Source: an uncultured Gemmatimonadales bacterium (lineage in GTDB: Bacteria > Gemmatimonadota > Gemmatimonadetes > Longimicrobiales > RSA9). Taken from it: a DNA stretch of 64,000 bases. Under the pieces are notes generated by a model. That model was given only the letters and a program-made list of their open reading frames with translations, made no database searches and was not told the origin of the DNA. Below are positions 9,108 to 43,600 of this stretch, in pieces. Both the position numbers and the translations under genes were made by a program. Every line of letters begins with the position of its first letter. Position 1 is the first letter of the stretch. The DNA is taken from the NCBI GenBank assembly GCA_963708135.1, contig OY970192.1:800001-864000 (forward strand), written 5' to 3'.

Positions 9108-9212
9108 ACGCCGAAGAAGAAGGTGCTGGTCGGCATCGCCCGCAAGGCGACGCGCATGATGTTCCGGGTCGCGGTCGAGCGGCGGCTGTACACGGCCGAG
9201 CCGCCGCGGTAG
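9108..9212 (+). pseudogene. IS110-family recombinase C-terminal remnant (unit 0), cut by IS21
   Basis: TPKKKVLVGIARKATRMMFRVAVERRLYTAEPPR matches C-termini of the intact copies. Confidence 0.9.
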
Positions 9213-9710
9213 GATGACGTAGCAGACAGGCTGGGGCGGGGCGCCGCTGCGCGCTCCCGCTTCCGGCCCGTGCACCGGGTCCAGGCCGGGGCAGAGCGCG
9301 CGAAGATGGATCGAAGGGACCCGCGTGGTCCGCTTCCGAGTGTGGCATTCGCGTACCCCGGCCCTGAGCACGCTCAAGTCTCCCATGTGGGGGTGTTGAG
9401 GGCCCTGCGGGGCGCCTCCGAATACCGACGCGATCGAGCTACGCGTGCTCATGTGGCCGGGGTGCGATTTGACAACAGGAGTCATCCTTTCAGGCGAGAG
9501 GAGCACCGCGTGCTCGCCGGGATGGTGGCCGGGCGTGGATCCGAGGCAGCACGTGAGGGGAGCGATGTCTCCGCCTCCGTCGAGTCGGCTGATCGCGCCC
9601 GGTCCACTCCCGTTGCTGTGACGCGCGGCTGAGGGGCCGGTGCGGATCCGATAATCTGGTCGAGGCGCACCCCGTGCGGCCTCCAAGGTGGCACTCGATC
9701 GCACCGGCCC
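9213..9710 (+). ncRNA. Putative multi-loop bridge/seek RNA region, unit 0 (4 internal loops)
   Basis: Non-coding region downstream of IS110 gene; stem-c-N12-GAGG..GCCTCC-N12-stem hairpins; conserved GGTGCGATTTGACAAC at 9461-9476; transcribed strand inferred. Confidence 0.7.
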
Positions 9711-9717
9711 ATCTGGG

Positions 9718-10008
9718 TCACTCTGCCAGCAGTTGGACTTCGAGTATCTCGCCGACCCCCGCCGCGGCGGCCGCTGTTCGATCGACGGAGTCGGGGTCCA
9801 CTGAGCCCCAGTTCAGAACTTCAAGGACATCGTACACAACCTCGCGCCCCGGGGAGTGTGGGTCTACAGACAGAATCTTGGCGACGACCACCTGACCATC
9901 GGCAAACCGCATCCGGACCCTCTGGTTTGCCAGCGGGATGAGTTCGGTAGCCTTCATCCTTTGCTCCTGTAGAAGTCGCGAGTACCCGGAGATCACTTCC
10001 ACATCCAT
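9718..10008 (-). CDS. Putative immunity protein (unit 0 cargo); true start may be MKATELI
   Basis: Small ORF immediately downstream of the orphan CT. Confidence 0.6.
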   Translation of the reverse strand: MDVEVISGYSRLLQEQRMKATELIPLANQRVRMRFADGQVVVAKILSVDPHSPGREVVYDVLEVLNWGSVDPDSVDRTAAAAAGVGEILEVQLLAE

Positions 10009-10505
10009 CGTTGGATGAGGAGGTGGACATTCCCACCAGTCAGTCTATTCTCCAAATTTCCGACCAATTCGCCCGCGTTGAAATGGCCCGCCGGCTTGAT
10101 CTGCGGCGCACGATAGACTCGATCTCCCGCGACTCGACCGATCTCGGCGCCCGCTCCACGAGCGGCTCGAATTGCGCGCCCTCCAGCGGTCCATATGCGG
10201 CCTGCGATGGTAGCCTCTAATTCACTACCGAGCCGAACGGTGACGTTTTTGACCGCGCCTGCCGCCGTTTCCAGAGCGCGTCCAACGCGTCCAGCTGCTC
10301 TCGCGACAGGAGGCATAGGGAGCATCGCCGTCATGCAGGAAATCGACTCAGCACACGTTGCGAGCACGCCACCTGCGTAGTTCAGCGCAGCGTTGCCTTC
10401 TCCCGTGGCGAGACGGTGCGCGTACCACTCTGACGTGCCCGCTTCACAGTTGTTGAAGTCATCATCGGCAGGCGGACACGAACCGAAGGGATCCGTGTAA
10501 GACGC
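9993..10505 (-). pseudogene. Orphan Rhs C-terminal toxin (unit 0 cargo, no start codon)
   Basis: Begins ASYTDPFGSCPP..; open to HLLIQRWMWK*. Confidence 0.85.
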
Positions 10506-10815
10506 ACCCCTCTACCGCGATTGCCCCGCCTTCCGGCCGACCCAGCAATTCAGCGATCTTATTCGTCTCAAACAGCGTCCCGTACCGTGACCCTGCAGGT
10601 GCAACCCTGAACCGTATCGCTGGGCTGCCGATCGGCTGAAGCCGGGTGGTCGATTCATCGACGTGCTCGGGATTCGCCTCCAGCCTGGCCGGCGTTACGG
10701 TCAACGGTTCGGCTCCGAGCTCCCCACGGCAGGCCTCGGCCGCCGTCTGACCGCGTTTTCTGTCATCGTCCGGTTCACGGTACGTCCCCGGCTCACCTCA
10801 ACCGGGAGACGCACC

Positions 10816-12048
10816 ATGAGCCACTACAAGAAGCGCCAGAGGGCCCAGCGAGCCGCCGCCGTGGTCGGGATCGACGCCGCAAAGCGCAGGCACGCGATGG
10901 TCGTGCGGCCGCGCGGCGGCGAGGACTCGACGCCGATGTTCTTCGAGGCGACGCGCGCCGGCTTCGGCAAGGCCCTGGAGGAGATCGAGGCCTGCGCCCC
11001 TGACGCCGAGCGGCACGAGATCCTGGTCGGCATCGAGTTCGCCGGGAACTACGGCTTCACGCTGGCGCACCACTTCGCGGCCGAGGGCCTCCAGGTCGTG
11101 AGCGTGCTCGGCTCGCACTCGAAGAAGTGGAAGGAGGTCGTCCACAACCAGAGCCTGAAGAGCGACCCGGCCGACGCCGTCACGATCACCGACCTGGCCA
11201 GCCAGGGGCACTTCGTGATCTTCCCCTTCCTCGAGCAGGTATTTGCAGACCTGCGCTACCTCGTGAGCCTGCGCGAGCGCCTGACGAAGCTCCGCACGGG
11301 CGCCATCACGCGCCTCAAGGACGTGCTCCAGGTCGTGTGGCCGGAGTTCGACCGCCGCTTCGGCAACTTCAACCACAAGACGCCGATCGCGCCCCTGGAC
11401 GCCTTCCCGGGGCCCGACGCGCTCCTGAAGGCGTCCAAGCGCCGCATCATGACCGTGCTCCGGAAGGCGAGCCGCGGCCACCTCGGCGAGAAGGCCTATC
11501 AGGAGCTCCGGCACATGGCGGAGCACACCGTCGCCCTTCCGGGGGCCCAGGGCGTGCTCAAGGACGAGATCGCCCTCCAGCTCGAGCTCCTCGCCACCTA
11601 CGAGCGGCAGATGGCCGAGGTCGAGCGGCTCATGGCGGAGTCTGTGTCGAGCGTGCCTGAGGGCGAGGCACTCCTTACGATCCCGAAGCTCGGGGCCGTC
11701 ACCGCGGCGACGTTCCTCGGCTCGATCGGCGATCCGCAGGTCTACGAGTCCAGCCGTCAGGCACTCCGCGTCGGCGGACTGTCGCTCGTCGTCCACGAGA
11801 GCGGCAACCGGCACGGGCGTCCGCGGCTCTCCAAGCGGGGCCGCCCCGAGCTCCGGCGCCAGATGTACATGTTCGCGCTCCGGAGCGTCTCCAACCGGTC
11901 CCTCTACCACGACTACTACCGCCGCATGCTGGAGCGGAACGGTGGCGAGAAGATCCCCGCGCTGGTCGCCGTGATGCGCAAGGCGGCGCGCCTCATGTTC
12001 AGCGTCGCGAAGGACCGGCGCGCCTTCACCATGGAACCACCGCGGTAG
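10816..12048 (+). CDS. IS110-family (DEDD) recombinase, apparently intact
   Basis: GIDAAK, GIEFAGNY, KSDPADA (D-E-D-D); IPKLGAVTAA, HESG serine, SKRGRPELR. Confidence 0.95.
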   Translation: MSHYKKRQRAQRAAAVVGIDAAKRRHAMVVRPRGGEDSTPMFFEATRAGFGKALEEIEACAPDAERHEILVGIEFAGNYGFTLAHHFAAEGLQVVSVLGSHSKKWKEVVHNQSLKSDPADAVTITDLASQGHFVIFPFLEQVFADLRYLVSLRERLTKLRTGAITRLKDVLQVVWPEFDRRFGNFNHKTPIAPLDAFPGPDALLKASKRRIMTVLRKASRGHLGEKAYQELRHMAEHTVALPGAQGVLKDEIALQLELLATYERQMAEVERLMAESVSSVPEGEALLTIPKLGAVTAATFLGSIGDPQVYESSRQALRVGGLSLVVHESGNRHGRPRLSKRGRPELRRQMYMFALRSVSNRSLYHDYYRRMLERNGGEKIPALVAVMRKAARLMFSVAKDRRAFTMEPPR

Positions 12049-12604
12049 CTCGGGGGAATAAACGGTGTGAGAGGGTCGGCTGGCGCGGACGCGCGCCGGC
12101 CCTCTCCGACCCAAGTGCACCCGACGCACGCCGGGGAGTTGCGCCCGAGAATGGATCGAGGAGGCCGCCCTTCGAGCGGCGGCCGGCCTCCGAATGCGGC
12201 ACACGCGCACCCCGGCCGGGAAGGCGCCCCAGTCTCCGAGATAGGGGTGTCGAGGGCTCCCAGGAACGCTGGCAGAACCGCGTTCCCGAGCGCCTCCTAC
12301 TTTGACCGCGATCGAGCTACGCGTCTTCATGCGGCCGGGGTGCGATCTGACAACACGGTTGCGGTTTCGCCCGGCGGGAGCGGCTCGCCGGGCGCGGACA
12401 CTCGCCTGGACGCGGATCCCGAGCGGCACTCGAGGGGAGCACAGCCTCTGCCTCCGAACAGGCCCCAGATCGCGTCCCGGCACCCTCTCCCCCGCCCCTG
12501 TGCGAGCAGACGGGGAAGAGGTGCACGAGGGGCCGGTGCGGATCCGATAATCCGGTCGAGGCGTCATCCGACGGCCTCCGAAGAGGCACTCGATCGCACC
12601 GGGC
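12049..12604 (+). ncRNA. Putative multi-loop bridge RNA region, unit 1 (4 loops)
   Basis: Same hairpin/internal-loop architecture; guide GATAATCCGG at 12546-12555. Confidence 0.75.
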
Positions 12605-12892
12605 CTACTCCGAAATCCCAAAGCGTGCTCTCGCATCCTCGGGAGCCACATTGATGAGCAACGGCGGTCCTCCACCGGGTAATTCGCTGTGGGGATAAGT
12701 CAGTACCCAAAAGCGTCCGTCCTTGGCGCGATACATGACGCTCCACCCATCATCTGAGCGCGCCACTTCCGTGATTTCGTGCGTAGTGATGATACGCTCA
12801 ATTCGACGGCATTCGTCGTCAGGGACAAGGCGGCCGTCCTGATCAACCCAAGTTCCGGTGATGACCGTTTCGTCTGGCTGAATGAGAGTCAT
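12605..12892 (-). CDS. Immunity protein, Imm27-like
   Basis: GW..Y....DGRFW.L.YP.SE..GGGPP.L motif recalled for Imm27; overlaps CT stop. Confidence 0.75.
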   Translation of the reverse strand: MTLIQPDETVITGTWVDQDGRLVPDDECRRIERIITTHEITEVARSDDGWSVMYRAKDGRFWVLTYPHSELPGGGPPLLINVAPEDARARFGISE

Positions 12893-13404
12893 GGGATCTT
12901 CCTTATCAGGGCCTCAAACGGAATCGTGCCGTTGGGGATTACGAATTCACGAGCACCACCTGAAGTAAGTCCACGCCCGACGAAGCCCGGTGTCTTTCGG
13001 CCGACGGGAGAAGCAATCGCCTCGATGGCCGAACTCGGGAATTCAATGATGTTGAAGCCGAAGGGGCTTTCTGGGATCCCCAACCGAGTGGCAATCTCCT
13101 TCGACCCCATCCCCGCTATATCCTCGGCGGCCGTGACAAACACATCTTCGGCGCCAGCTCGCCCCAACGTTGCTGGAACAATATTCCCGGGAACGACGCG
13201 AGCAAGGACACTTGGGACAGCATTGGCTACTTCCCGACCGAGCAAGCGCCTTCCGAAGTCCGCAATGCCGCCTGCAATTCCGCCCGCGAGAACAGCGATG
13301 GGATCGAAAAATCCGGCGCTTTCAAGGCCTGGTTCGCCGCCGGGACACCCCGTATGCCACTCAGTCTCTGGGGGACACAATCCGAAGGGATCTGTATATA
13401 CCGG
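12889..13404 (-). pseudogene. Orphan Rhs CT, Ntox10-like (unit 1 cargo)
   Basis: PVYTDPFGLCPPETEWH..; C-terminal GLTSGGAREFVIPN; family call from memory. Confidence 0.75.
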
Positions 13405-13574
13405 ACGCCTCTAACCCAATGCGCCCCGTTTCGGCCTCAGACACCTCCCGCCGGACTCTACCTCCAGCCGTCTCAATCAGCCGTCCTGACACCCCCCCGA
13501 ACACCGAAGCCCTTCAGCATACCACCTAAAGTTCCATCGCCTCAGGCGCCCTCAGCCGCCGTCGATCCGCCCGG

Positions 13575-15011
13575 GGAGGTATTTTCAGAAGTTGTGGATC
13601 GCGTGACTTGATGGGGTGAAAAAAGGCGGCGTATCCTTCCGCGTTGGTTCGTTCACCGAAACGCGAAGCCCCGCTGGCCGGCGGGGGGAAGGAGACGCCA
13701 CCCATGCTGAAGCTATTCATGGACGCCCCTGCGGAGCAAGCGGGGGGGCTGGAGTTCACGCTGGACGAGCTCGCGCGTGAGGGCGCGCGGCGGATGCTGG
13801 CGGTGGCGCTGGAGGCGGAGGTGGCCGCCTACGTGGAGCGCTACCGGGGCGAGCGGGACGAGGCGGGACACGCGCTCGTGGTGCGCAACGGGAAGGCGCG
13901 GCCGCGACGCGTGACGCTCGGGGCCGGGACGGTGGAGGTCGCCGCGCCGCGGGTGAATGACCGACGGGTGGTGGAGGGGACGCGCCAGCGCTTCACGAGC
14001 GAGATCCTGCCGCCGTACATGCGGCGCAGTCCCAAGGTGGCGGAGGTGCTGCCGGTGCTCTATTTGCGCGGGCTCTCGACCGGGGACTTTCAGGAGGCGC
14101 TGCGGGCGCTGCTCGGAGCGGAGGCCACAGCGGGGCTGTCGCCGAGCGTCATCAGCCGCCTGACTGGAGCTTGGGAGGAGGAGTACCGGGCCTGGCGGCG
14201 GCGCGATCTCTCGGACCGAGACTACGTCTACGTCTGGGTGGACGGGGTGCATTTCCGGATCCGGCTGGAAGAGGACCGCCTGTGTGCGCTCGTCGTGATC
14301 GGAGTGCGCCCGGACGGGACCAAGGAGCTCGTGGCCATCGAGGACGGCTACCGCGAATCGACGGAGAGCTGGGCGGCGCTCCTGCGCGATCTGACGAGGC
14401 GCGGCATGCGCCCTCCCGTCCTGGCCGTAGGGGATGGCGCGCTCGGCTTCTGGGCGGCCGCGCGCGACGTCTGGCCCGACACGCGGGAGCAGCGCTGCTG
14501 GGTGCACCGGCTGGCCAACGTGCTGGACAAGCTGCCCAAGCGGCTCCAGCCGAAAGCGAAAGCGCATCTGCGCGAGATCATGAACGCGGAGAGCCGCGCG
14601 GCGGCCCAGGAGGAGATTGAGCGCTTCCGCGAAGAGTACGGCGCCAAGTACCCCAAGGCGGTGGCGTCCCTCGTGCGCGACCAGGACCAGCTCCTGGCCT
14701 TCTTCGACTTCCCGGCCGAACACTGGAAGCATCTGCGCACCACCAATCCGGTGGAGAGCACCTTCGCGACCGTGCGGCTCCGGCAGCGGGTGACGAAGGG
14801 AGCGGGCTCGAGAACGCGCGGGCTGGTGTTCGCCTACAAGCTCCTGGACATGGCCAGCCAGCGGTGGCGGCGCCTCGACGGCGCCCACCTCCTCCCCCTC
14901 GTTCGGGCGGAGGTCCAGTTCACCGACGGCATCATGCAAGAGAGGGAGGATCAAGAAGGGCGGAGGAGCGCCGCCTGATCACCCCAATCCACAACATTTG
15001 ACAATAGCTCT
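13575..15011 (+). mobile_element. IS256-family insertion sequence with 8-bp TSD CCGCCCGG
   Basis: Imperfect TIRs GAGGTATTTTCAGAAGTTGTGGAT / GAGCTATTGTCAAATGTTGTGGAT; TSD at 13567-13574 and 15012-15019. Confidence 0.9.
13704..14978 (+). CDS. IS256-family transposase
   Basis: RNG, LYLRGLSTGD, YVWVDG, GDGALG, QRCWVH, RTTNPVES. Confidence 0.95.
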   Translation: MLKLFMDAPAEQAGGLEFTLDELAREGARRMLAVALEAEVAAYVERYRGERDEAGHALVVRNGKARPRRVTLGAGTVEVAAPRVNDRRVVEGTRQRFTSEILPPYMRRSPKVAEVLPVLYLRGLSTGDFQEALRALLGAEATAGLSPSVISRLTGAWEEEYRAWRRRDLSDRDYVYVWVDGVHFRIRLEEDRLCALVVIGVRPDGTKELVAIEDGYRESTESWAALLRDLTRRGMRPPVLAVGDGALGFWAAARDVWPDTREQRCWVHRLANVLDKLPKRLQPKAKAHLREIMNAESRAAAQEEIERFREEYGAKYPKAVASLVRDQDQLLAFFDFPAEHWKHLRTTNPVESTFATVRLRQRVTKGAGSRTRGLVFAYKLLDMASQRWRRLDGAHLLPLVRAEVQFTDGIMQEREDQEGRRSAA

Positions 15012-15162
15012 CCGCCCGGATTCCGTCACCACTCCGGCGGTGATACGCTTCCGGGTTCGGGCTCAAACCCGGCAGGCGCCGCTCACAACGCCATTCAGCC
15101 CGATTCCGCCATCGGTGCGGCCCACGGTACCGCTCTGGTCCACTTCAACCAGGAGCGAGACC

Positions 15163-16398
15163 ATGAGCCGTTTCGAGAAGCGCCGCCGGGCCCAGCGCGC
15201 CGCCGCCGTCGCCGGAGTGGACGCGGGCAAGAGGAAGCACGCGATCGCCGTCCGGCCGCGCGGCGGCGAGGACAGCACGCCGCTCGAGTTCCAGACGACG
15301 CGGGAGGGCTTCGAGATCGCCGTCCACGCGATCCTCGACAACGCGCCCGACGCGCGGCCGGAGGACGTGCTGGTCGGCATCGAGTTCGCCGGCAACTACG
15401 GCTTCACCTTCGCGCACTTCCTGCGCGACCGCGGCTTCCAGGTCGTGAACGTGCTCGGCGCGCACAGCAAGCGCTGGAAGGAGGTCGTCCACAACCAGGG
15501 GCTGAAGAGCGACGCGAAGGACGCGCTCACGATCACCGACATGGTGGCGCAGGGCGCCTTCGTCGGCTTCCCGTTCCTCGAGCAGGTCTACGCCGACCTG
15601 CGCTACCTGGTCAGCATGCGCGAGCGCCTGACGAAGCTCCGGAGCGCGACGATCGCGCGGCTGAAGGACGTGCTCCAGGTCGTCTGGCCGGAGTTCGAGC
15701 GGCGCTTCAGCAACTTTAGCAAGAAGACGCCGATCGCGATCCTGGAGGCGTTCCCCGGGCCGGATGCGTTCCTGCGCGCACCGAAGCGGCGCGTGCTGAA
15801 GGTGATCCGGGAGGCGAGCCGGGGTCATCTGGGCGCGGCCGCCTACGAGCACCTGCGGTGCGCGGCCGAGGACACCGTGGCGCTCCCCGGCGCGCAGGGC
15901 GTGCTTGCGCAGGAGGTCGGCCTCCAGCTCGATCTCTTGGCCTCCTACGAGCGCCAGATCGCCGAGGTCGACCGCCTCATGGCCGAGCGGCTCGTGGACG
16001 CGCCCGAGGCCGAGGCGCTCCTGTCCGTCCCGAAGCTCGGCGCCGTCACGGCCGCCGTGTTCCTGGGCTCGATCGGCGACCCGCGGGCCTACGACTCCAG
16101 CCGGCAGGCGCTCAAGGTCGGCGGCCTCGGGCTCGTCGTGAGCGAGAGCGGCGCCCAGCGCGGCCGGCCGCGGCTCCCCAAGCGCGGCCGGCCCGAGCTC
16201 CGGCGCCAGATGTACATGTTCGCGGTGCGGAGCGTGAGCCGGGGCGGCCTGTTCCGGGCGGAATACGAGCGGGCGCTCGAGCGCAATCCGAACACGCCGA
16301 AGAAGAAGGTGCTGGTCGCGCTCGCGCGGAAGGCGACGCGGCTCATGTTCGCGCTCGCGAAGGAGCGGCGGCTGTACACGATGGAACCGCCGCGGTAG
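15163..16398 (+). CDS. IS110-family recombinase (unit 2)
   Basis: GVDAGK, GIEFAGNY, KSDAKDA, SESG; PKRG instead of SKRG. Confidence 0.95.
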   Translation: MSRFEKRRRAQRAAAVAGVDAGKRKHAIAVRPRGGEDSTPLEFQTTREGFEIAVHAILDNAPDARPEDVLVGIEFAGNYGFTFAHFLRDRGFQVVNVLGAHSKRWKEVVHNQGLKSDAKDALTITDMVAQGAFVGFPFLEQVYADLRYLVSMRERLTKLRSATIARLKDVLQVVWPEFERRFSNFSKKTPIAILEAFPGPDAFLRAPKRRVLKVIREASRGHLGAAAYEHLRCAAEDTVALPGAQGVLAQEVGLQLDLLASYERQIAEVDRLMAERLVDAPEAEALLSVPKLGAVTAAVFLGSIGDPRAYDSSRQALKVGGLGLVVSESGAQRGRPRLPKRGRPELRRQMYMFAVRSVSRGGLFRAEYERALERNPNTPKKKVLVALARKATRLMFALAKERRLYTMEPPR

Positions 16399-17045
16399 GT
16401 TGGGGGAATCAACACCATGGGAGGGCCGGCTGGCGCGGTGCGCGCCGGCCCTCCTACAGTGCACCAGACGCAGGCCGGGGGATGGAGCAGAAGAATCCAT
16501 CGAAGGGGCCGTCTCGCACGAACGTGAGGCCTGCTTCCCAAGGTCGGACCCGCTCCCCCTGACCCAGAGTTCGCCACAGTCTCCGAGGAAGGCGTGTCGA
16601 GGGCCACGCGCGGCAGACGCCGCCACGGTGCCTCCGAGGACTTGAGGGTATCGAGCTACGCGATCTCGAGTGGTCTGGGTGCGATTTGACAACTCAGCGC
16701 TTGCCTTCGCCGTCGCGGCGTCGAGCCGGCCGCGACGGAACGGGTGGCGTGTGCCCGGCGCGGATCCGACATCCAGCCTGAGGCGGCCCAGCCGGCCTCC
16801 CATGATGGACCTGATCGCGTCGGGCACCGTCCTCCTCATGGGCATCGGCCCGGCATGGACCCGATAATCCGGATGAAGGGCGCTCTGCGGCCTCCCATGT
16901 GGGACTCGGTCGTGCCGGGCCCCGCCTCCCCGCCGGGCTGGCCGACGGGGAGGTGAGCCGAACCGGGGCCTGTGTGGATCGGGGGATCCGACAGAGGCGC
17001 GAACATCGCGGCCTCGGAAAGTGACACTTGATCGCATCGGCCTCT
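16399..17045 (+). ncRNA. Putative multi-loop bridge RNA region, unit 2 (5 loops)
   Basis: Two-loop core closed by GCACCAGAC/GTCTGGGTGC stem plus three stand-alone hairpins. Confidence 0.75.
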
Positions 17046-17055
17046 TCGCTGGTCG

Positions 17056-17457
17056 TCATCGGTACTCCTCCTCCAAGCGTTGCAGTAGGGCAGTAAACTC
17101 AGCTACAGCCTCCGGAATCCCCTCGCCCAAGTCCTCGTGGAAGTAGTCGCGGAAGAGTAGATCTGGCCAGATCCGCGTCTGCCCAGGCGCGGTGGTGTCG
17201 ACGCGCCAATATCGGGAAGCCCGGCCATCTACTATCTCGAACAGTGAGATCGGTGCCCAGGAGAGCTTCCCATGCTCATTGACGAGGTGCAGCCATGTCC
17301 CGGTGCCCAAGACGTTGGAGTCAACCGAGAATTGGACTCCAACTACCATGTAGGTCTTCCCCAATTCCAATGCGAACTCATGGGCATCAGCAGCTACTCG
17401 GCCCATCCGCATCCGCTGCTCGGCGGTCGGCGAAATGGAGACACACTTGGCTCGCAT
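17056..17457 (-). CDS. Putative immunity protein (unit 2 cargo)
   Basis: Start overlaps CT stop (TAATG); low GC. Confidence 0.75.
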   Translation of the reverse strand: MRAKCVSISPTAEQRMRMGRVAADAHEFALELGKTYMVVGVQFSVDSNVLGTGTWLHLVNEHGKLSWAPISLFEIVDGRASRYWRVDTTAPGQTRIWPDLLFRDYFHEDLGEGIPEAVAEFTALLQRLEEEYR

Positions 17458-18011
17458 TATCTGAATACCGTTTTGAATTCCACCCGCACACCGGTTACGA
17501 GGTTTTCGACCCAGTGTGTCTCGAACCGGACTCCGTCGTCTGCCCTAAATATGCTACTACTCTTCTTGACCCAGTCTCCTGCCTCGCCTCCGTACTGCTC
17601 AGCTATCCTGCCAGCATCCCGAAACACGGTTCCGGATCGACCACCGGCAAAGATGGTCCCTCGCTCCGCCATCTGCGCTTTGCTGGCGATCTGTTTCGCC
17701 AGGTTGAGGGCTTCGCCACTTCTGCCGACGCCGCCGATGAAGGCCCCGGGCGAGCCGCACAAAACACCTTCACCACAACCGCCCCCCATAAGGTCGTTGA
17801 AGGTCTGTTCTCCGGCTTCAAGAGCTGCGCCCACGTTCAGCGCCCAAGAACGGCCGGTTCGAGACCCCCAGTTGGCCAGTAATTGGTAACAGGATTCATC
17901 GGAACCGGTGAAGGGACACAGCCCGAACGGATCGGTATAGGAGGCCGGATTATCCCCGTTGTAGCTGTAGAGGTTGAGCCCGCCCGCAAGTCCAATGGGG
18001 TCTTCCTGCGT
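17457..18011 (-). pseudogene. Orphan Rhs CT with retained core tail TQEDPIGLAGGLNLYSYNGDNPASYTDPFG
   Basis: Translation; C-terminal RDAGRIAEQYGG..DWVKKSS..ETHWVEN..G..VEFK (predicted nuclease-like, unassigned). Confidence 0.85.
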
Positions 18012-18139
18012 TAATATCCGCTCAGACGCCTCCGGCCGACTCCCGAGCCGCTATCCCTCTGTCGTTTCTTTCTTTAGCCGCTTCCTTCCCGCCTTCTTCG
18101 TCGTAGTTTTCCGCTTCAGACCTGGATGCGTGTTTTCCC

Positions 18140-34256: not shown

Positions 34257-36207
34257 CGATTCCAGATGTTAAGATGCGTGGTCGCGTTGGGACCAGGGTT
34301 ACCCAGCGCGTCGAGATAGTTGCGAGCTGCATTCATGATGCGCAGTTGCCAACCATTTTCCCGCCGCATTAAGCGAACTTCTTCGCCCGTTCCATTCGTG
34401 AAAAGGTAGCCACTCTTATTCTCCGTCAGTCCCATCACAAACCCGTTCTCTTTCAGAATTGCGCGAATTCCAATGATCGACTCATCCGCAAGTCCGCCTC
34501 CCTCCGAGAACAGCGCGCGTAGCCCGGCGCTCGCTCCCCGTAGCCCCCGCCCGACGGCACCACCACCCACCGTGAATGCCGCCATTGCGAAGCCGCGTCC
34601 GGCGTGACCACTCCCGATATCGAAGCCAGCATCAAACGCTGCGGTGATCGGATTGACATCGTTGATCGCATTCAACCCAGCTGCGGCATTGAGCACCACG
34701 CCGCCCAGGCCACCGCCACGCTGCGCTCCCCAATTTGCCGCTTTCTGCAAGCAATCTTCAATCGGCGGGCACAATCCGAACGGGTCGGTATAAGACGCGG
34801 GGTTGTTGCCCGCATACGCATAGAGGTTAAGCCCGCCGGCAAATCCGATGGGGTCTTCCTGCGTGAACCTCCCCAATCTGGCGTCGTAGTAGCGGTTGCG
34901 GAAGAAGGCTCCGGTCTCCTGGTTCGAGTCGCCGTTGCGGGCGGGGGCGAAGCTGTAGCTTTCGCGGATGGCACCCGACTGCGAGCCCCAGGTACTCCAC
35001 GCCGGGAGCTCGTTTCCGTTCGTGTCCGTGATGCAGTTCTCGCCCTGCGGGCCCTGGAAGCTGAACAGTCGTTCGCGATGCGTGATGAAATATGCGCGCT
35101 TGTCGTTCAGGCTGCCGAGGGGACACGCAGCGTTGCCGTACATCATCAGCGGGTCGTCGAGCCCCGGCCCGTCCACGAACTCGACCGTCGAGTGCTCGAT
35201 CACGTTCTGACCATCGTAGAAGGTCTCCGCGCCGGAGTGGGCATAAGCGCCGCGGATCCGCCGGCCCAGGCCGTCGTAGCGGAAGAAGGCGGTATCGGGG
35301 TGAGTGCCGGAGAGCTGGCCGGCGGCGCTGTAGTAGCGGTGCCAGGTGTAGGCGGTCCCGGCGTAGGTGCCCTGCTCGAGCGTCTCGTTGCCGTTCGCGT
35401 CGTAGCTGAAGTCGACGCTCTCCGGACCGGAGACGCCGCTGTAGTAGCGGGTCCGGCGGGTCACCTCGTTCGAGAGGCCGTCGAGCTGGAAGAGCACGCT
35501 GTCGGCGCACAGGCTGCCGCGCACGCACAGGTACTCTTTCACGCGGTTGCCGGCCGCGTCGTAGACCATGCTGTCGGTCGAGGACGTCCCTCCAGGGTGG
35601 CTCTGACTCGTATAGCGGATGCGCCCGCTCCCGTCGTAGGCCCAGCGGTCCACCCAGGTCGCGTTATTGGTCTCGTTGCCGCGGTTGACGACCGAATCAG
35701 GCCGCCCAGCGGCGTCGTAGGCGAAGCTCAGGTCCACGGCGGTGTCACCGCTCGTGGCGTTGACGGAGATGACGCGCGCGATCTGCCCGTCTTTCGTGTA
35801 ACCGTAGCTCGTTTTCGTGGTGTTGGGCAGCCAGACCGTGTCGCGCCGCCCGAGCGCGTCGTAGTGGAACGAGATCATCTCGCCAGCGGGCGTCTGGATC
35901 TGGGAGACGAGCCCGCCCGGCCCGAGGGTGTAGGTGTACGTCCCCTTCGGCGTGCTCAGCGTATGGCGGCCCGCCCACTGATAGGCCGAGCTGTAGGTGC
36001 GCTGCGTGCCGGACCACTTGTGGAGCTGCGTGCTTGAGGCGAGGGTGCCTTCCTTGTTGAAGACCCGCGTGACCTGCGAGCTGTCCTCATCGAGCATGGT
36101 GACGTTACCGGCCGCGTCATACTGGAGGTTGATCGTCGTGCCGACCACGCCGAGGACGCCATTCTGGTAGGTGGATGAGAGGACGCGCTGCTTCGGGCGA
36201 TTCACTC
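34253..36207 (-). pseudogene. 5'-truncated Rhs (near-identical to main Rhs core) fused to the integrative-element CT
   Basis: 34865-36207 matches ~41228-42570. Confidence 0.9.
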
Positions 36208-36697
36208 AGGACGAGGTACGTCTCCTCCTCGAGCTGCTGGCGATGTACGACCGGCAGATCGCGGCCGTGGAGGAAGCGATGGTCTTCGCCCTCCGTCGGG
36301 CCCCGGAGGCGAAGGCGCTGATGTCGATCCCCAAGCTCGGCGCGGTCACCGCGGCTGTCTTCCTGGGTTCGATCGGCGATCCGAGGGCGTACGAGTCGAG
36401 CCGGCAGGCGCTCCGCGTGGGTGGCCTCTCATTGGTCGTGCAGGAGAGCGGGCTGCTCCGCGGCAAGCCGCGCCTCAGCAAGCGGGGCCGGCCCGAGATG
36501 CGACGGCAGGCGTACATGTTCGCGGCCGCAGCGTGATGAAGGGTGGGCTCTACCGGGAGGCGTTCGACCGCGCCCTGGCCGAGAACCCGCAGAAGCCGAA
36601 GAAGAAGATCCTGGTGGCCCTGGCGCGGCGCGCCACGAAGCTCATGTTCAGCGTCGCGCGGGACCGGAGGCTGTACACGCCGGATGGCCCGAAGTAG
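36208..36697 (+). pseudogene. IS110 recombinase 3' fragment (unit 3), frameshifted
   Basis: DEVRLLLELL..IPKLGAVTAA..QESG..SKRGRP; frame break near 36530; then KPKKKILVALARRATKLMF. Confidence 0.9.
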
Positions 36698-37218
36698 GAT
36701 TCCGGCAGGTGAAAGAGCGGAAGGGCTGCGGCATCCTGCCGAGCCCTCCCGCGAGCACCAGACGCAGGCTGGAGAGTGGAGCCGGCAATCCATCGAAGGA
36801 GTTGCAGAAGCGCTCGGCGCCGCAGCTCGCTTCCGAATGCTGGAACGCTCCCTCCGGCCCAGAGCCCGCTCAAGTCTCCGAGGAAGGCGTGTCGAGGACC
36901 CTCCGGGGTGCCTCCAAGGAACTGAGGGTATCGAGCTACGCGAGCCCGAGCGGTCTGGGTGCGATTTGACAACTCCGTATACTACCTGCCGAGACCCCGA
37001 CCGGGCGGTCGCGGCACCAGTGGCGCGTGCCCGGCGTGGACCCGCCATGTCCCTTGAGGCGGCGTTGCCGGCCTCCGATGGTGGACTCGGTCACGTCGGG
37101 CAGCGCGCTCTTTCACGTCAAACACCCACCGACAGCGCTGCCCGGCATGGGTCCGACAATCCGGTTGAGGCGCGTCCTGCGGCCTCCGATACCGGACTCG
37201 ATCATGCCGGGCAGCTTC
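36698..37218 (+). ncRNA. Putative multi-loop bridge RNA region, unit 3 (4 loops)
   Basis: Same architecture; guides GACAATCCGG / GATACCGGAC in the last hairpin. Confidence 0.75.
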
Positions 37219-37220
37219 GG

Positions 37221-37622
37221 CTACCGCCTGACCGGTTCACCGTCGATGCTTACGCCGCGGGCGATGACGACGAGCGACGCAGCATCATCGAAGTATAGGC
37301 GGTAGCGCGTGATTGGAGGGCGCGGCACTGTCTCGTGCCAACCCACTGAAGTGTTCCAACGAGCCTCCAGCTCTTGAATGTCGGCGGCAGCTGTCTCAGC
37401 CACGATGTAGTCCGGTCCGATGACGTCTTCTTCTACGCAGACGGCGCCCGCCGTGTATTCGACCCGAAGCACGTCGGAGAAGGTGACTTCGGTCCATTTC
37501 GTCTCTCCTTCTTCAGTAGTGTCGTACCGAACCGTTGCGAAGCCTTCGGACATGTTCACGACCGGACCAGCCAGCGTGTGACTGGTGCGGCGTGGCAGAT
37601 CAATCAAGGTCGTCATGTTCAC
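37221..37622 (-). CDS. Putative immunity protein (unit 3 cargo)
   Basis: Overlaps CT stop (GTGA). Confidence 0.75.
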   Translation of the reverse strand: MNMTTLIDLPRRTSHTLAGPVVNMSEGFATVRYDTTEEGETKWTEVTFSDVLRVEYTAGAVCVEEDVIGPDYIVAETAAADIQELEARWNTSVGWHETVPRPPITRYRLYFDDAASLVVIARGVSIDGEPVRR

Positions 37623-38125
37623 CTGATTACAGGGGTGAACGTCGGAGATGCAGAGCCCGCCATCTCAGCGAGGCGTTCCGTTAGCTGCCTCTCAAACATT
37701 GCATTGCCCGTAACATTGTTGATTACGGTCGGCCTCATGCCCGCGATCCTCAACGCCATCAGCGAGCGGTTGTTCATCGTGTACGACACGCCATCTCGAA
37801 CAACGACGTTTAGGGGCAGCTGACTTGGTGTGATCGCACCGCTTCTCAGGCCGGCCGCCACATCAGAGATCGACTGACCTGCAAACTCGCCGTGACGGAA
37901 GCTCGACGAAATACCCCTCTGGGCGAACTGTACCGCTCCCTCGTCAGCGGCTGCGGTGGCGACGCTGCGTCCGATCAGTGCTCGGATCCCGCCTGCGATG
38001 CCGCCTGCGAGAAACGCTACCGGATCTAGCAGACCAGGGCCACGGAGACCTGGTTCGTGTCCTGGACACCCCGTATGCCACTCAGTCTCCGGAGGGCACA
38101 ATCCGAAGGGATCGGTATAGGAGGG
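37619..38125 (-). pseudogene. Orphan Rhs CT, ParB/Srx-like toxin domain (unit 3 cargo)
   Basis: PSYTDPFGLCPPETEWH..; VQFAQRGISSSF..G..LPL.VV..G..YTMNNRSLMAL. Confidence 0.75.
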
Positions 38126-38440
38126 ACGCCTCTAACCCAATGCGCCCCGATTCGGCCTCCGATCAGCCTACCTCCGACGCCACCTCCCGCCGTCTCAATC
38201 AGCCCTCCTGACACCCTCCCGAACAGCGAAACCCTTCACCATACCACCCGCAGCTCCACCGCCTCAGGCGGGGTCGACTGCCTTCCATTCACCCGGATTC
38301 CGCGCCCGATCCTGGCGGTGATACGGTTCCGGGTTCCGCCTCCGTCCCGGCGGCCCCGGCTCAGAGCGCCATAGAGCACGATTCCGCCATCGGTGCGGCC
38401 CACGGTACCGCTCTGGTCCACTTCAACCAGGAGCGAGACC

Positions 38441-39652
38441 ATGAGCCGTTTCGAGAAGCGCCGCCGGGCCCAGCGCGCCGCCGCCGTCGCCGGAGTGGAC
38501 GCGGGCAAGCGGAAGCACGCGATCGCGGTCCGGCCGCGCGGCGGCGAGGATAGCACGCCGCTCGAGTTCCAGACGACGCGAGCCGGCTTCGAGACCGCGG
38601 TCCGCGCGATCCTCGAGAACGCTCCGGGCACACGACCCGAGGACGTGCTGGTCGGCATTGAGTTCGCCGGCAACTACGGCTTCACCTTCGCCCACTTCCT
38701 GCGCGACCGCGGCTTCCAGGTCGTGAACGTGCTCGGCGCCCACAGCAAGCGCTGGAAGGAGGTGGTCCACAACCAGGGGCTGAAGAGCGACCCCAAGGAC
38801 GCGCTCACGATCACCGACATGGTGGCGCAGGGCGCCTTCGTCGGCTTCCCGTTCCTCGAGCAGGTCTACGCCGACCTGCGCTACCTGGTCAGCATGCGCG
38901 AGCGGCTGACGAAGCTCCGGAGCGCGACGATCGCGCGGCTGAAGGACGTGCTCCAGGTCGTCTGGCCGGAGTTCGAGCGGCGCTTCAAGAACTTCAGCAA
39001 GAAGACGCCGATCGCGATCCTGGAGGCGTTCCCCGGGCCGGATGCGTTCCTGCGCGCACCGAAGCGGCGCGTGCTGAAGGTGATCCGGGAGGCGAGCCGG
39101 GGTCATCTGGGCGAGGCCGCCTACGAGCACCTGCGGTGCGCGGCCGAGGACACCGTGGCGCTCCCCGGCGCGCAGGGCGTGCTTGCGCAGGAGGTCGGCC
39201 TCCAGCTCGATCTGCTCGCGTCCTACGAGCGCCAGATCGCCGAGGTCGAGCGCCTCATGGCCGAGCGGCTGGTGGACGCGCCGGAGGCGCCCTCGCTCCT
39301 CTCGGTGCCGAAGCTCGGCGCCGTGACGGCCGCCGTGTTCCTCGGCTCGATCGGCGACCCGCGGGCCTACGACTCGAGCCGGCAGGCGCTCAAGGTCGGC
39401 GGCCTCGGGCTCGTCGTGAGCGAGAGCGGCGCCCAGCGCGGCCGGCCCGAGCTCCGGCGCCAGATGTACATGTTCGCGGTGCGGAGCGTGAGCCGGGGCG
39501 GCCTGTTCCGGGCGGAATACGAGCGGGCGCTCGAGCGCAATCCGAACACGCCGAAGAAGAAGGTGCTGGTCGCGCTCGCGCGGAAGGCGACGCGGCTCAT
39601 GTTCGCGCTCGCGAAGGAGCGGCGGCTGTACACGATGGAACCGCCGCGGTAG
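38441..39652 (+). CDS. IS110-family recombinase (unit 4) with 8-aa in-frame deletion
   Basis: Close paralog of 15163-16398; SESGAQRGRPELR lacks RLPKRGRP. Confidence 0.9.
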   Translation: MSRFEKRRRAQRAAAVAGVDAGKRKHAIAVRPRGGEDSTPLEFQTTRAGFETAVRAILENAPGTRPEDVLVGIEFAGNYGFTFAHFLRDRGFQVVNVLGAHSKRWKEVVHNQGLKSDPKDALTITDMVAQGAFVGFPFLEQVYADLRYLVSMRERLTKLRSATIARLKDVLQVVWPEFERRFKNFSKKTPIAILEAFPGPDAFLRAPKRRVLKVIREASRGHLGEAAYEHLRCAAEDTVALPGAQGVLAQEVGLQLDLLASYERQIAEVERLMAERLVDAPEAPSLLSVPKLGAVTAAVFLGSIGDPRAYDSSRQALKVGGLGLVVSESGAQRGRPELRRQMYMFAVRSVSRGGLFRAEYERALERNPNTPKKKVLVALARKATRLMFALAKERRLYTMEPPR

Positions 39653-40292
39653 GTTGGGGGAATCAACACCATGGGAGGGCCGGCTGGCGCGGTGCGCGCC
39701 GGCCCTCCTACAGTGCACCAGACGCAGGCCGGGGGATGGAGCAGAAGAATCCATCGAAGGGGCCGTCTCGCACGAACGTGAGGCCTGCTTCCCAAGGTCG
39801 GACCCGCTCCCCCTGACCCAGAGTTCGCCACAGTCTCCGAGGAAGGCGTGTCGAGGGCCACGCGCGGCAGACGCCGCCACGGTGCCTCCGAGGACTTGAG
39901 GGTATCGAGCTACGCGATCTCGAGTGGTCTGGGTGCGATTTGACAACTCAGCGCTTGCCTTCGCCGTCGCGGCGTCGAGCCGGCCGCGACGGAACGGGTG
40001 GCGTGTGCCCGGCGCGGATCCGACATCCAGCCTGAGGCGGCCCAGCCGGTCTCCCATGATGGACCTGATCGCGTCGGGTACGCTCTTCCTCATGGGCATC
40101 GGCGCCGGCATGGATCCGAGAACCCGGACGAGGCGCGTTCTGCGGCCTCCCATGTGGGACTCGGTCGTGCCGGGCCGCACCTCCCCGCCGGGCTGGCCAA
40201 CGGGGAGGTGAGCGGAACGGGGCCGGTGTGGATCCGATAATCCGGTCGAGGGGTCACGGACCGCCTCCAACATCGGACTCGATCGCACCGGC
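39653..40292 (+). ncRNA. Putative multi-loop bridge RNA region, unit 4 (5 loops)
   Basis: Loops 1-3 carry the same guides as unit 2; loops 4-5 differ; GATAATCCGG at 40236-40245. Confidence 0.75.
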
Positions 40293-40670
40293 CTATTTCT
40301 TTCGCCGCATCGATTCCTCTGTTTGGCTACAGACCGCGGTCATCGCTGGCCCCATGTACGACCGGGCAGTTTTCATCCAGTCCGAATTGTCGGTTAGCCT
40401 CTCGCAAACGCTGAATGCGGCAATCTCCTGCACCTTCGGATCCGGATGGGCGGCCAGTATTTCGAGGGAGTCGAAGACTCTCCGAATCTCGGCCCCGTCA
40501 TTCCGCTCGATCGCGGCGATAAGATGCGGGGTGAGCAGATCACCATAGATGATGTGAGGGCCGGGACGTTCAGTGCCCCACCATTCCAGTTCTTTTTCGT
40601 ACTTTTCCCTCAACTCTGGTATGCTGGTGATCAAGTGATCCACAACAGTCTCGTATTTGATCTCTGTCAT
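40293..40670 (-). CDS. Cognate immunity protein of the full-length Rhs
   Basis: Start overlaps Rhs stop (TGATG). Confidence 0.8.
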   Translation of the reverse strand: MTEIKYETVVDHLITSIPELREKYEKELEWWGTERPGPHIIYGDLLTPHLIAAIERNDGAEIRRVFDSLEILAAHPDPKVQEIAAFSVCERLTDNSDWMKTARSYMGPAMTAVCSQTEESMRRKK

Positions 40671-43600
40671 CAGTGCCCTCGAAGTGCATTCTGGAGGTCC
40701 GTAAGAACTCGCTGGGCGGTTGTTCGGTCGGCAGCGCTGAGCTCCTCCTGCTGAAGAATTCGTTGAAGCTGACGGGCACGCTGTTGGCCCTTGAGAAGAT
40801 GCGACCGGCCTCCCACGAGTTCACCGGTCCGTAGCTCCTCCCTGATTGCTCCAGCGGTCCCGCCAGGTAGCTTGTCGCCCGCACGGAACAGTTGCTCGAT
40901 GGCGCCTTGGAGGCGTGCGTTAGCGGCTGCCGGGATCTCATTCGCGAAGGCCCCGTACTGACGAATACGATTTGCATTTCGCAGTCCCTCAACAAGACCC
41001 CCTCCCACTGCTCCGAGGGCGGCGTCTGTGATTCCCTGGGAGAGTGTATAGTCCCCCCCGAGCGCTTTCGTGATAAGGTAACCCTCGGCGACACCTACAA
41101 CGGCACCTGCGGCGATTTCAAAGCAGATCGGGCAGAGTCCAAACGGGTCGGTATAGGAGGCCGGATTATCCCCGTTGTAGCTGTAGAGGTTGAGCCCGCC
41201 CGCAAGTCCGATGGGGTCTTCCTGCGTGAACCTCCCCAATCTGGCGTCGTAGTAGCGGTTGCGGAAGAAGGCTCCGGTCTCCTGGTTCGAGTCGCCGTTG
41301 CGGGCGGGGGCGAAGCTGTAGCTTTCGCGGATGGCACCCGACTGCGAGCCCCAGGTACTCCACGCCGGGAGCTCGTTTCCGTTCGTGTCCGTGATGCAGT
41401 TCTCGCCCTGCGGGCCCTGGAAGCTGAACAGTCGTTCGCGATGCGTGATGAAATATGCGCGCTTGTCGTTCAGGCTGCCGAGGGGACACGCAGCGTTGCC
41501 GTACATCATCAGCGGGTCGTCGAGCCCCGGCCCGTCCACGAACTCGACCGTCGAGTGCTCGATCACGTTCTGACCATCGTAGAAGGTCTCCGCGCCGGAG
41601 TGGGCATAAGCGCCGCGGATCCGCCGGCCCAGGCCGTCGTAGCGGAAGAAGGCGGTATCGGGGTGAGTGCCGGAGAGCTGGCCGGCGGCGCTGTAGTAGC
41701 GGTGCCAGGTGTAGGCGGTCCCGGCGTAGGTGCCCTGCTCGAGCGTCTCGTTGCCGTTCGCGTCGTAGCTGAAGTCGACGCTCTCCGGACCGGAGACGCC
41801 GCTGTAGTAGCGGGTCCGGCGGGTCACCTCGTTCGAGAGGCCGTCGAGCTGGAAGAGCACGCTGTCGGCGCACAGGCTGCCGCGCACGCACAGGTACTCT
41901 TTCACGCGGTTGCCGGCCTCGTCGTAGACCATGCTGTCGGTCGAGGACGTCCCTCCAGGGTGGCTCTGACTCGTATAGCGGATGCGCCCGCTCCCGTCGT
42001 AGGCCCAGCGGTCCACCCAGGTCGCGTTATTGGTCTCGTTGCCGCGGTTGACGACCGAATCAGGCCGCCCAGCGGCGTCGTAGGCGAAGCTCAGGTCCAC
42101 GGCGGTGTCACCGCTCGTGGCGTTGACGGAGATGACGCGCGCGATCTGCCCGTCTTTCGTGTAACCGTAGCTCGTTTTCGTGGTGTTGGGCAGCCAGACC
42201 GTGTCGCGCCGCCCGAGCGCGTCGTAGTGGAACGAGATCATCTCGCCAGCGGGCGTCTGGATCTGGGAGACGAGCCCGCCCGGCCCGAGGGTGTAGGTGT
42301 ACGTCCCCTTCGGCGTGCTCAGCGTATGGCGGCCCGCCCACTGATAGGCCGAGCTGTAGGTGCGCTGCGTGCCGGACCACTTGTGGAGCTGCGTGCTTGA
42401 GGCGAGGGTGCCTTCCTTGTTGAAGACCCGCGTGACCTGCGAGCTGTCCTCATCGAGCATGGTGACGTTACCGGCCGCGTCATACTGGAGGTTGATCGTC
42501 GTGCCGACCACGCCGAGGACGCCATTCTGGTAGGTGGATGAGAGGACGCGCTGCTTCGGGCGATTCACTCCGTCGTACTGGATCGCGACGGTGCTGCTGT
42601 CGCGGTTCCTGCGGAGCGTCAGGTTGCCGGCGAGGTCGTAGGCATGGAACTCCGTTGCTCCCATCCCATCGATCATCGCGGTATCCTCGCCCAGCGCGTT
42701 GTAGTGCCAGCTGCGGGAAAAGGTCATGCGCGGGTCGACAGCCGTTGTCCGGTCGCCATCCGCGTCGTACGTGAAGTGGCTCGCACGTCTGTAGACGCCG
42801 TCGTAGTGATCCACCTCGGTGAGATTCCCCAAGGCGTCATGCACGTAGGTCAAACTGTCGCCAACGGGATTGGTCACCCGCCGAACCTGGCCGTTGGCGT
42901 CGTACGCGTAGCTCGTGGTGTGACCCTCGGGCGTGGTGCTCGAGAGCAGGTTGCCAGCATTGGAATCGTCGTTGGCGAGGATGGTGCTGAGATCCTGCAC
43001 GGTATCGCCGTAGACAGGTACCGACTGCTCGGTCACGCTCGCGACCTGGCCGCGCGAGTTGTAGGTGAAGCTGGTCTCGTGACCACGCGGGTCGATGACA
43101 TTGTCGAGCGTCCCGTCCGTGGAGCTGTAGTTGAAGGTGGTCGTGTCTCGGGTCGCGCCCGAGCGCGGTGCGATGACCTTCCACGGTTTGTCGGGTGCGG
43201 CGGTCGAGTAGAGGTAGACTGTGGAATCCGCGCCCGCGCTGGATGTGAGGTCCGCGGCGTTCCGAACGCGGCCGACGACGTCGTACGCAGTGGTGGTCTG
43301 GCGGCCGTTCGGCCAATCGACCTCCTTCGGCAGCAGCGGGAAGTTGGAGTCGTACGTCAGCACGGTGGTGTTGCCCACGGCGTCGATGATCCTCGTCGGT
43401 GCCCCGAAGCGGTCGAGGTAGAACTTCGTGATCTGAATGGTGTGGGTGCGCGGTCCCCGCACCTCGAAGTCCGCGCTTGCCGCGGCGTAGGTGTCGTTCA
43501 GCCCGGTCGCGGTCGTTGCGAGGCCGAGAGTCTGGAGAGGAGTGAACGTTGTCACGGGTGTGCCGGCGCTGACCGTCGGCAGCGTGTCGGCCGCGAGCAG

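Follow-up and report, generated by a model that had tools for sequence, protein, structure and literature searches.

How does a bacterium come by a new toxin tip for its Rhs protein? New tips of polymorphic toxins (Rhs, CdiA and others) have been explained so far by homologous recombination, the arrival of a tip in a genome that lacks it being left unexplained. The question is raised here by a stretch of 64,000 nt (the window; positions 800001–864000 of contig OY970192.1) from the genome of an uncultured Gemmatimonadales bacterium (5.45 Mb, about 70% G+C), in which a main Rhs gene is followed on the minus strand by displaced tips and immunity genes, and in which six insertion sequence (IS) units of the IS110 family, three intact and three truncated, each carry a tip and an immunity gene (Table 1). 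The main gene displays the features of an Rhs polymorphic toxin: YD/RHS repeats (RHS_repeat and YD_repeat_2x profiles of Pfam/NCBIfam), a core domain (Rhs_assc_core, TIGR03696, at residues 1489–1554) that ends in DPxGL..(x18)..DPxG, and a variable C-terminal toxin with an immunity gene behind it. The DPxG pair at the core end is presumably the autoproteolysis motif. The analysis set out below makes it probable, with good confidence, that the units are IS110-family elements whose distal end is the start of a start-less Rhs toxin, and whose guide RNA would swap that tip in frame into Rhs.

Junctions at one codon of the Rhs gene

The units of the window have a common layout: a transposase-proximal end, a gene for a DEDD transposase (plus strand), a non-coding region of 500–640 nt and, convergent with these, an immunity gene and an Rhs tip (minus strand). 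Read on the minus strand, with a slash at the junction, their boundaries are ..AGAGGGGTG/CGTCT (10505), ..AGAGGCGTC/CGGTA (13404), ..AGAGGCGTC/CCTCC (38125), GATAATCCGG/CCTCC (17945 and 41161) and AATAATCCGG/CCTCC (28127), and all six continue into TAY ACN GAY CCN TTY GG, which encodes YTDPFG. Each tip in the window starts 5 nt ahead of the Tyr codon of this motif, behind the end of the Rhs core (..GATAATCCGG) or behind the end of an element (..AGAGGCGTC, ..AGAGGGGTG). The IS units adjoin the Rhs core end or the next element, always at the same codon position and in one orientation, and no target duplication is visible. An earlier sequence-only reading of the window, made without database searches, had described six such units (three of them complete), had quoted the six junction strings at one codon of the core motif and had seen no target duplication; the units were recovered here, the IS110 genes of the three complete ones with Pfam and NCBIfam profiles, and every string stands where that reading had placed it. 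The exact crossover is not placeable; usually position -5 (T or C) is the only one common to both partners. Two joints (36207/36208 and near 27040, at 27040/27044) lie off the motif and are ordinary rearrangements.

The transposases of units 1, 3 and 4 match DEDD_Tnp_IS110 (PF01548) and Transposase_20 (PF02371) over their full length in Pfam, and the three intact genes score 185, 158 and 179 bits against the NCBIfam model NF033542 ("IS110 family RNA-guided transposase"; cut-off 140). The non-coding region lies 3' of the transposase stop codon, an IS1111-like trait, since a long non-coding region downstream of the transposase gene is the criterion for the IS1111 subgroup (PMC11187229). By transposase family and by the guide logic predicted in silico, the units are members of the IS110 family with a non-coding region that is IS1111-like in position. 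In the host genome this transposase clade is confined to the window and to an internally deleted remnant at a second Rhs locus (L001).

A predicted guide RNA with several loops

The six non-coding copies of the window align into repeated modules (the top strand is here the coding strand of Rhs). The donor loop follows the consensus AGTCTCCG-(13 nt)-GAGGG-hairpin-CCTCC-(13 nt)-ATCGAGCTACGCG, and the target loops, of which there are one to three per element, follow GGATCCG-(10–12 nt)-TYGAGGCG-hairpin-GCCTCC-(11 nt)-CGATCG. An RNAalifold consensus of 23 diverse donor loops consists of two stems bounding an internal loop, with 20 consensus pairs, six of which show compensatory double changes; an Rfam scan of positions 8500–42000 at E ≤ 1 matched zero families. 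The 5' guide of IS621 reads like the left half-site and so pairs with the bottom strand there; its 3' guide is complementary to the top strand of the right half-site and includes handshake bases for the partner DNA (PMC11208158). Covariation of guides, sites and stems suggests that the 3' region encodes a multi-loop bridge/seek guide RNA of the IS621 layout. Its single donor loop would have a 5' guide in the sense of the transposase-proximal end and a 3' guide antisense to the first 4–5 nt of the cargo toxin; its target loops would have a 5' guide in the sense of the Rhs core end (e.g., GATAATCCGG) and a 3' guide complementary to the beginning of the resident tip and to a few nt of the element's own end, as in the handshake guide of IS621.

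Covariation of the donor loop with both proposed element ends

Relatives were collected by a scan of 185,579 species genomes (20 loci) and a metagenome scan (72 loci), and the layout is repeated among these 92 other loci, mostly of Gemmatimonadota. The donor loop was found 59 times, five of them in the window; 46 of these have an identified tip-start junction downstream (41 with the strict motif, five with variants), and the remaining 13 have at most 1055 nt of contig left on that side.

The central 5-mer of the donor 5' guide (GGGGT, GGCGT, GGAGT or GAGGT) is present in the element's own transposase-proximal end in all 18 distinct pairs, a result reached by none of 20,000 shuffles. At the other side of the loop, positions 3–6 of the reverse complement of the 3' guide are identical to the four bases with which that element's cargo tip begins in 31 of 41 strict-motif instances (19 of 26 when distinct pairs are counted, 10 of 17 when distinct types are; 0 of 100,000 shuffles reach this), and in each of seven other registers none of the 26 pairs match. 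All five variant-motif cases agree as well, giving 36 of the 46 instances overall. The matching words are CGTC in unit 0 (cargo start CGTCT), CGGT in unit 1 and CCTC in units 2r, 3 and 4 (cargo start CCTCC in unit 4); among the other elements they include TGTC, TATC, TCTC, TAGC, TAAC, TTGC and TGGC. In unit 1, the 5' guide ..AGGGGTG.. and the reverse complement of the 3' guide, ..CGGT.., equal the ends at 10505 and 13403, and the circle junction that had been predicted for this unit beforehand (..GGGGTG joined to CGGT..) is exactly the one its donor-loop guides specify. The four variable bases that the guide follows are situated past the immunity gene and the toxin, some 1–1.5 kb off, and such agreement is expected only if those bases are the other end of the element; this covariation is the crux of the proposal that the cargo lies inside it.

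Target loops and their sites

In the host genome GATAATCCGG occurs eight times: five times in target loops, twice at Rhs core ends and once elsewhere. The target-loop 5' guide agrees with the flank left of the far junction in the window (GATAATCCGG) and, with other words, in relatives: GGCGACCCGGT in L009 and L010, GGGGATCCG in L006, GGGGATCCGG in L011, ACAACCCGGC in L013, ATAATCCGG in L005, and 8–11 nt of ..GYTGTGAG (GCTGTGAG-type) in L017, L046 and L048. When the reverse complement of the 3' guide is compared with the junction of element end and displaced tip, the mean best match is 5.95 nt vs 4.58 nt for shuffled pairs (0 of 5000 reach it), with matches such as GGTGTCACGT in L064, GTGTCACGT in L012, L044 and L054, GGTGTTTC in L013 and GTGTCAC in L006.

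The first target loops of units 4, 3, 1 and 2r have 5' guides (GACATCCAGC, CGAGCGGCAC or GCCATGTCCC) that match neither Rhs core end. Counted in the host genome, these guides (GACATCCAGC and others) proved to be uninformative GC-rich words from which no target emerged. In the L012–L067 clade the equivalent loop matches a ..GTTGTGAG site resembling a repetitive extragenic palindrome (REP). The second target loop of unit 4 carries the guide GAGAACCCGG, one mismatch away from the second Rhs core end, GACAACCCGG (L001, 5772), and one RNA may therefore address both Rhs genes. Additionally, in L012, L044, L054, L064 and their relatives the Rhs-directed loop expects a resident tip that starts with TCACGT and the delivered tip starts with TAGCC; the junction formed by insertion would therefore no longer fit the guide, which could be a form of target immunity.

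Relatives and parked copies

Genome-set loci of at least 49% identity mostly show an orphan tip behind an element end (element end/Y(T/S)DP(F/Y)G) 100–320 nt upstream of the gene and a junction about 1.5 kb downstream of it; three loci at 41–49% identity (L019, L021, L022) have neither the upstream orphan tip nor the downstream junction. Of the 41 strict cases, 19 have an Rhs core end to the left of the far junction, 17 have another element's end there and 3 a REP-like ..TGTGAG sequence; the other 2 fall into none of these classes. In L017, L046 and L048 the whole unit, immunity gene and tip included, is located outside any Rhs gene at REP-like sites, with ..GCTGTGAG/TAGCC TAT ACC GAT on one side and ..AATAGGGGTGT/TTCTCACGAC on the other; the first of these flanks (GCTGTGAG) matches the 5' guide of the first target loop. 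A cargo-less subfamily of 2.05 kb (L061–L066, L072) ends in the tip start TAGCCTATACCGATCC with no toxin after it, at three different ..TGTGAG flanks. No uninterrupted, empty REP-like site was found in any of the loci or in the host genome.

Copies that carry cargo, sit at REP-like sites unrelated to Rhs and end exactly at the toxin start place the toxin/immunity cassette inside the mobile element, and together with the cargo-less relatives they support a mobile unit that ends at the tip start and moves with its cargo. The proposal of the sequence-only reading, that the far end of the element is the toxin start and that a guide RNA joins donor and target, is thus supported along three independent lines, by the donor-loop covariation, by the copies of the core end in the target loops and by these parked copies.

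An IS110 clade that is more remotely related (37% identity to unit 1) forms a tandem array (L124 at 6176 and 14452 and L125 at 927; G340:C3:360000-392000), in which every copy faces a convergent YADPFGL tip beginning behind ..ACGACGCGC/TCATG. IS110 elements may therefore be associated with tip starts beyond the clade studied here.

Proposed mechanism

A circle that joins the transposase-proximal end to the toxin start would recombine, under guidance of the RNA, at a point some 5 nt before the Tyr codon in ..NP(A/V)x/YTDPFG. Integration would fuse the new tip in frame to the Rhs core, and the old tip with its immunity gene would land behind the element without any duplication; repeated rounds would build an array of displaced tips and immunity genes. 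The extra loop present in some relatives would direct an element with silent cargo to a REP-like intergenic site for parking. The circle, the RNA, catalysis and present activity are what we infer from the anatomy of the units, the guide–site covariation, the conserved layout and the parked copies.

A broader view has, in our estimate, about an even chance of being right. According to it, the RNA is a natural multi-loop bridge RNA performing programmable in-frame domain swapping, the core-end/tip motif serves as a universal right end, so that any tip with its immunity gene could be captured, and a tip would lie silent at a REP-like site by means of one loop and be armed by fusion to the Rhs core by means of another.

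Organization of the locus

On the minus strand the main Rhs gene is followed by unit 4, unit 2r, a core fragment with copy 2 of an integrase/primase island, the remnant unit, a second core fragment with island copy 1, and units 3, 1 and 0 (Table 1).

Table 1. Features of the array in the window (positions in nt; CT, C-terminal tip; imm, immunity gene)
Feature	Position	Strand	Parts and remarks
Main Rhs gene	40670..45796	-	1708 aa; core 45796-41161; current tip CT-A 41160-40670; RHS_repeat, YD repeat matches
Unit 4, intact	38125..41160	+	transposase-proximal end 38125-38440; transposase 38441-39652; guide region 39653-40292
Unit 4, loops			donor 39832-39916; target 40016-40071, 40112-40167, 40230-40285
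Unit 4, cargo		-	immunity A 40293-40670 (DUF7674); toxin CT-A 40670-41160
Unit 2r, truncated	36208..38124	+	transposase 3' part 36208-36697; guide region 36698-37220
Unit 2r, loops			donor 36873-36942; target 37038-37093, 37149-37204
Unit 2r, cargo		-	immunity B 37221-37622; CT-B 37619-38124
Island copy 2 with Rhs core fragment	28095..36207	-	core fragment 36207-34766, 98.6% identical to 42570-41129
Island copy 2, genes			CT-C 34765-34253; immC 34256-33807; helix-turn-helix 33036-33563 (+); primase 33103-30026; integrase 30029-29067; core-end repeat 28193-28095
Remnant unit	27040..28126	+	last two target loops 27111-27166, 27230-27285
Remnant unit, cargo		-	immunity D 27294-27596 (DUF6966); CT-D 27606-28126
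Island copy 1 with second Rhs core fragment	17913..27044	-	core fragment 27044-24585, 85% identical to main Rhs, 91% to second Rhs locus
Island copy 1, genes			CT-C' 24584-24071; immC' 24074-23625; helix-turn-helix 22854-23381 (+); primase 22921-19844; integrase 19847-18885
Island copy 1, further			HicA-like 18348-18614; core-end repeat 18011-17913
Unit 3	13404..17944	+	transposase 15163-16398; guide region 16399-17055; transposase-proximal end interrupted by IS256-family element
Unit 3, loops			donor 16578-16662; target 16762-16817, 16857-16912, 16976-17034
Unit 3, cargo		-	immunity E 17056-17457; CT-E 17457-17944
Unit 1, intact	10505..13403	+	transposase-proximal end 10505-10815; transposase 10816-12048; guide region 12049-12604
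Unit 1, loops			donor 12231-12323; target 12414-12472, 12540-12596
Unit 1, cargo		-	Imm27 immunity 12605-12892; Ntox10 toxin CT-F 12889-13403
Unit 0, truncated	9108..10504	+	transposase 3' remnant 9108-9212; guide region 9213-9708
Unit 0, loops			donor 9377-9445; target 9644-9701
Unit 0, cargo		-	immunity G 9718-10008; CT-G 9993-10504

The tips of the window are mutually different, with about 60 N-terminal residues common to CT-B, CT-D and CT-F; CT-F is an Ntox10 toxin paired with Imm27, and the remaining tips are without a Pfam match. The sequence-only reading had assigned a different toxin/immunity pair to each unit, which holds for the cargoes as such and needs qualification for those shared N-terminal residues. 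Its unit at 13404–17944 was likewise confirmed, and an insertion of the IS256/Mutator family at 13567–15010, inside the transposase-proximal end, had been overlooked; a 99.9% identical copy of this insertion lies at the second Rhs locus (L001, 8494–9938). An open reading frame at 16694–17059 was considered as a second immunity gene of unit 3 and rejected, as it overlaps the target loops at 16762–17034 and is rich in Arg and Pro. The second Rhs locus itself (L001; C1:2779001-2798000) holds one orphan tip that retains about 850 bp of core, together with a divergent second Rhs-like gene, and the IS110 copy there (16105–16634) is internally deleted and truncated at its end.

The account of the locus stood for the IS110 units and missed a second, integrase-based carrier of tips: the part from 17913 to 36207 does not consist of IS units. 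Positions 17913–26017 and 28096–36199 are a 98% tandem duplicate of an integrase/primase island with Rhs core fragments and contain no IS110 units. The island proper measures about 6.7 kb (copies at 17913–24682 and 28095–34864), each copy being bounded by Rhs core-end repeats of about 100 bp, and encodes in minus-strand order a CT-C tip, its immunity gene, a Cro/CI-type helix-turn-helix protein, a DnaG-like primase (1025 aa), a Xer-like tyrosine recombinase (PRK01287 subfamily, 401 bits vs a cut-off of 371) and a HicA-like gene. Another genome (G099; L109 and L110), from a different family within the same class, has homologous primase/integrase pairs (57–59% identity) arranged in tandem, with different tips, between Rhs core ends. 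Tips thus appear to be brought to the same place in Rhs by mobile elements of two unrelated kinds.

Weighing the explanations

Several observations weigh against RNA-guided tip exchange. The donor-loop match is only 4–5 nt long and fails in 10 of the 46 instances, which represent seven distinct guide/start pairs (three of four bases agree in four of them, L005, L013, L025b and L059/60/75, two in L009a and L030, and one in L025a/L038). Its register was fixed on the genome set after inspection of the first dozen elements; in the later metagenome set, with the register already fixed, 10 of 14 distinct guide/start pairs match by our tally from the listings. Target-loop 5' guides match over at least 9 nt in only 10 of 33 elements, and the cross-element controls overlap because core ends resemble one another. 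The target-loop 3' guides of the window fit the displaced tips now present poorly, except in unit 1 (GTGCcTCTT vs GTGCGTCTT) and unit 2r (reverse complement AGTCCGGTATC, matching the junction GTC/CGGTAT at 13404/13403). For sub-terminal inverted repeats, a further trait of the IS1111 subgroup, the best 9-nt window reaches at least eight matches in one of 17 elements (CTCCTATA, L010), with a mean of 6.1 vs 5.4 for shuffled ends. No circle or excision joint was seen in the assembled contigs of public runs aligned to 36000–42500, where two candidates were rejected: a joint that goes back 6363 is the Rhs core repeat, and a skip from 38519 to 39509 represents the copy with an internal deletion at the second Rhs locus. 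In five genomes of relatives searched for multiple copies there was one close copy in four, so that they offer no identical multi-copy proof of transposition, and the fifth (G342) holds three moderately related copies (51–56% identical to the query) on one contig. Finally, backbone and cargo do not co-diverge. Units 3 and 4 are 94.5% identical over 15015–16980 and carry different cassettes, L025 matches unit 1 at 92.7% only over 10563–12612, and 804 different letters stand between 40290 and 41136 in a related strain, whose core match stops exactly at 41161.

From this decoupling it follows that cassettes are also exchanged between backbones, for which homologous recombination involving IS copies and the conserved tip start of about 35 nt is probably the simplest route. 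Could homologous recombination, through that tip start and either the Rhs core or the IS backbones, drive tip exchange altogether, with IS110 elements as hitchhikers kept near Rhs by their guides? The decoupling agrees with this, as do the two off-motif joints and the orphan tips with long core fragments (a classical substrate) at the second Rhs locus and in the island copies; we nevertheless consider it unlikely, since no core homology precedes the tips that lie behind IS ends, the junction falls exactly at the codon, the predicted guides specify both junction partners, and parked copies lie at sites without any homology to Rhs, which a purely homology-driven process does not account for. Homologous recombination probably acts alongside the IS and not in its place. 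A plain IS of 2.1 kb, running from the transposase-proximal end to the end of the non-coding region and targeting the core-end/tip motif within a pre-existing array of orphan tips, would make the cassettes host DNA. Conserved repeats, and even conserved motifs within genes, are common targets of IS110/IS1111 elements (PMC11187229), DNA conservation between units ends at the immunity stop codon, and cargo-less relatives of 2 kb exist. Such an IS predicts junctions between a core end and the end of the non-coding region, however, and none of the 46 far junctions that were identified is of this kind; it offers no grounds on which a donor-loop guide should covary with a toxin start 1–1.5 kb away, it leaves unexplained the cargo-bearing copies at REP-like sites that are bounded at the toxin start, and the toxin-start tip TAGCCTATACCGATCC forms the end even of the cargo-less relatives. 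This explanation is accordingly given a small chance, somewhat below that of exchange by homologous recombination. Least probable is an array built mainly by the Xer-like integrase/primase island with the Rhs core end as its attachment site. The two flanked copies, each with its own tip and immunity gene, and the tandem islands of the same type in another family speak for it, but the island accounts only for 17913–36207, and the IS units, which have neither core-end repeats nor an integrase, occur without it in most relatives.

Comparison with known systems

Orphan Rhs/CdiA tip arrays and C-terminal displacement have reportedly been described before (Jackson 2009, Poole 2011, Koskiniemi 2014) and are reported to have been ascribed to homologous recombination through retained core sequence. 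Such arrays have in common with the window that the main gene is followed downstream by displaced tips with their immunity genes and that a new tip replaces the old one at the core-end motif; here, unlike in those arrays, each displaced tip begins right at the junction with an IS end before it. The arrangement also resembles integron gene cassettes, which are promoter-less, inserted site-specifically at one position and expressed when newest, older ones being pushed downstream, whereas here the recombinase is predicted to be RNA-guided and travels with each cassette, and expression would come by translational fusion, not from a promoter.

With the IS621 bridge recombinases (Durrant et al., Hiraizumi et al. 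2024; PMC11208158) the units share a recombinase with DEDD/RuvC-like and Tnp domains, stem-bounded internal loops, the sense/antisense logic of the guides, handshake nucleotides and seamless insertion without duplication, these being predicted from sequence in the present case. They differ in that the guide region lies downstream of the gene, that there are three to four loops (one donor and up to three target) vs two, that one end lies in coding sequence, that the natural cargo amounts to 0.8–1.5 kb, and that insertion would produce an in-frame gene fusion. The IS1111-type seekRNA elements (Siddiquee et al. 2024; PMC11187229) have likewise a non-coding region downstream of the transposase gene, short guides matching both target strands, REP-like and conserved-motif targets and no duplication, and artificial cargo placed between their ends can be moved; natural toxin/immunity cargo is unmentioned in the available text of that paper (the word "passenger" occurs 0 times), and the non-coding region is about three times longer here. 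The nearest natural precedent is ISPpu9 of Pseudomonas putida, which belongs to the IS110 family and sits at REP sites; its transposase also mobilises a neighbouring module, the ssr9 small RNA gene, in alternative circles (PMC12288879). This module is a small RNA gene and not a protein cassette, and there is no fusion to a host gene.

The sequence-only reading knew of no description of such a system, and none of an IS110/Rhs tip-swapping system was found in searches of full-text literature; one preprint merely lists IS110 transposases among mobile elements near WXG toxins. Compared with the known systems found, the predicted one differs in its natural protein-coding cargo, an end inside a reading frame, insertion by translational fusion and several target loops.

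Implications

On the broader view set out above, the distant IS110 clade of 37% identity and the unrelated Xer/primase island exploit the same codon, and the Rhs core end would be a hotspot for competing mobile elements. If the proposed mechanism is true, a self-mobile RNA-guided element brings toxin and immunity together and installs the toxin by precise translational fusion, leaving behind an archive of earlier immunity genes. It would also be, as far as the full-text searches reach, the first natural IS110-family element with protein-coding cargo, and would provide a natural RNA with several alternative target loops and a natural case of a recombination site within an open reading frame.

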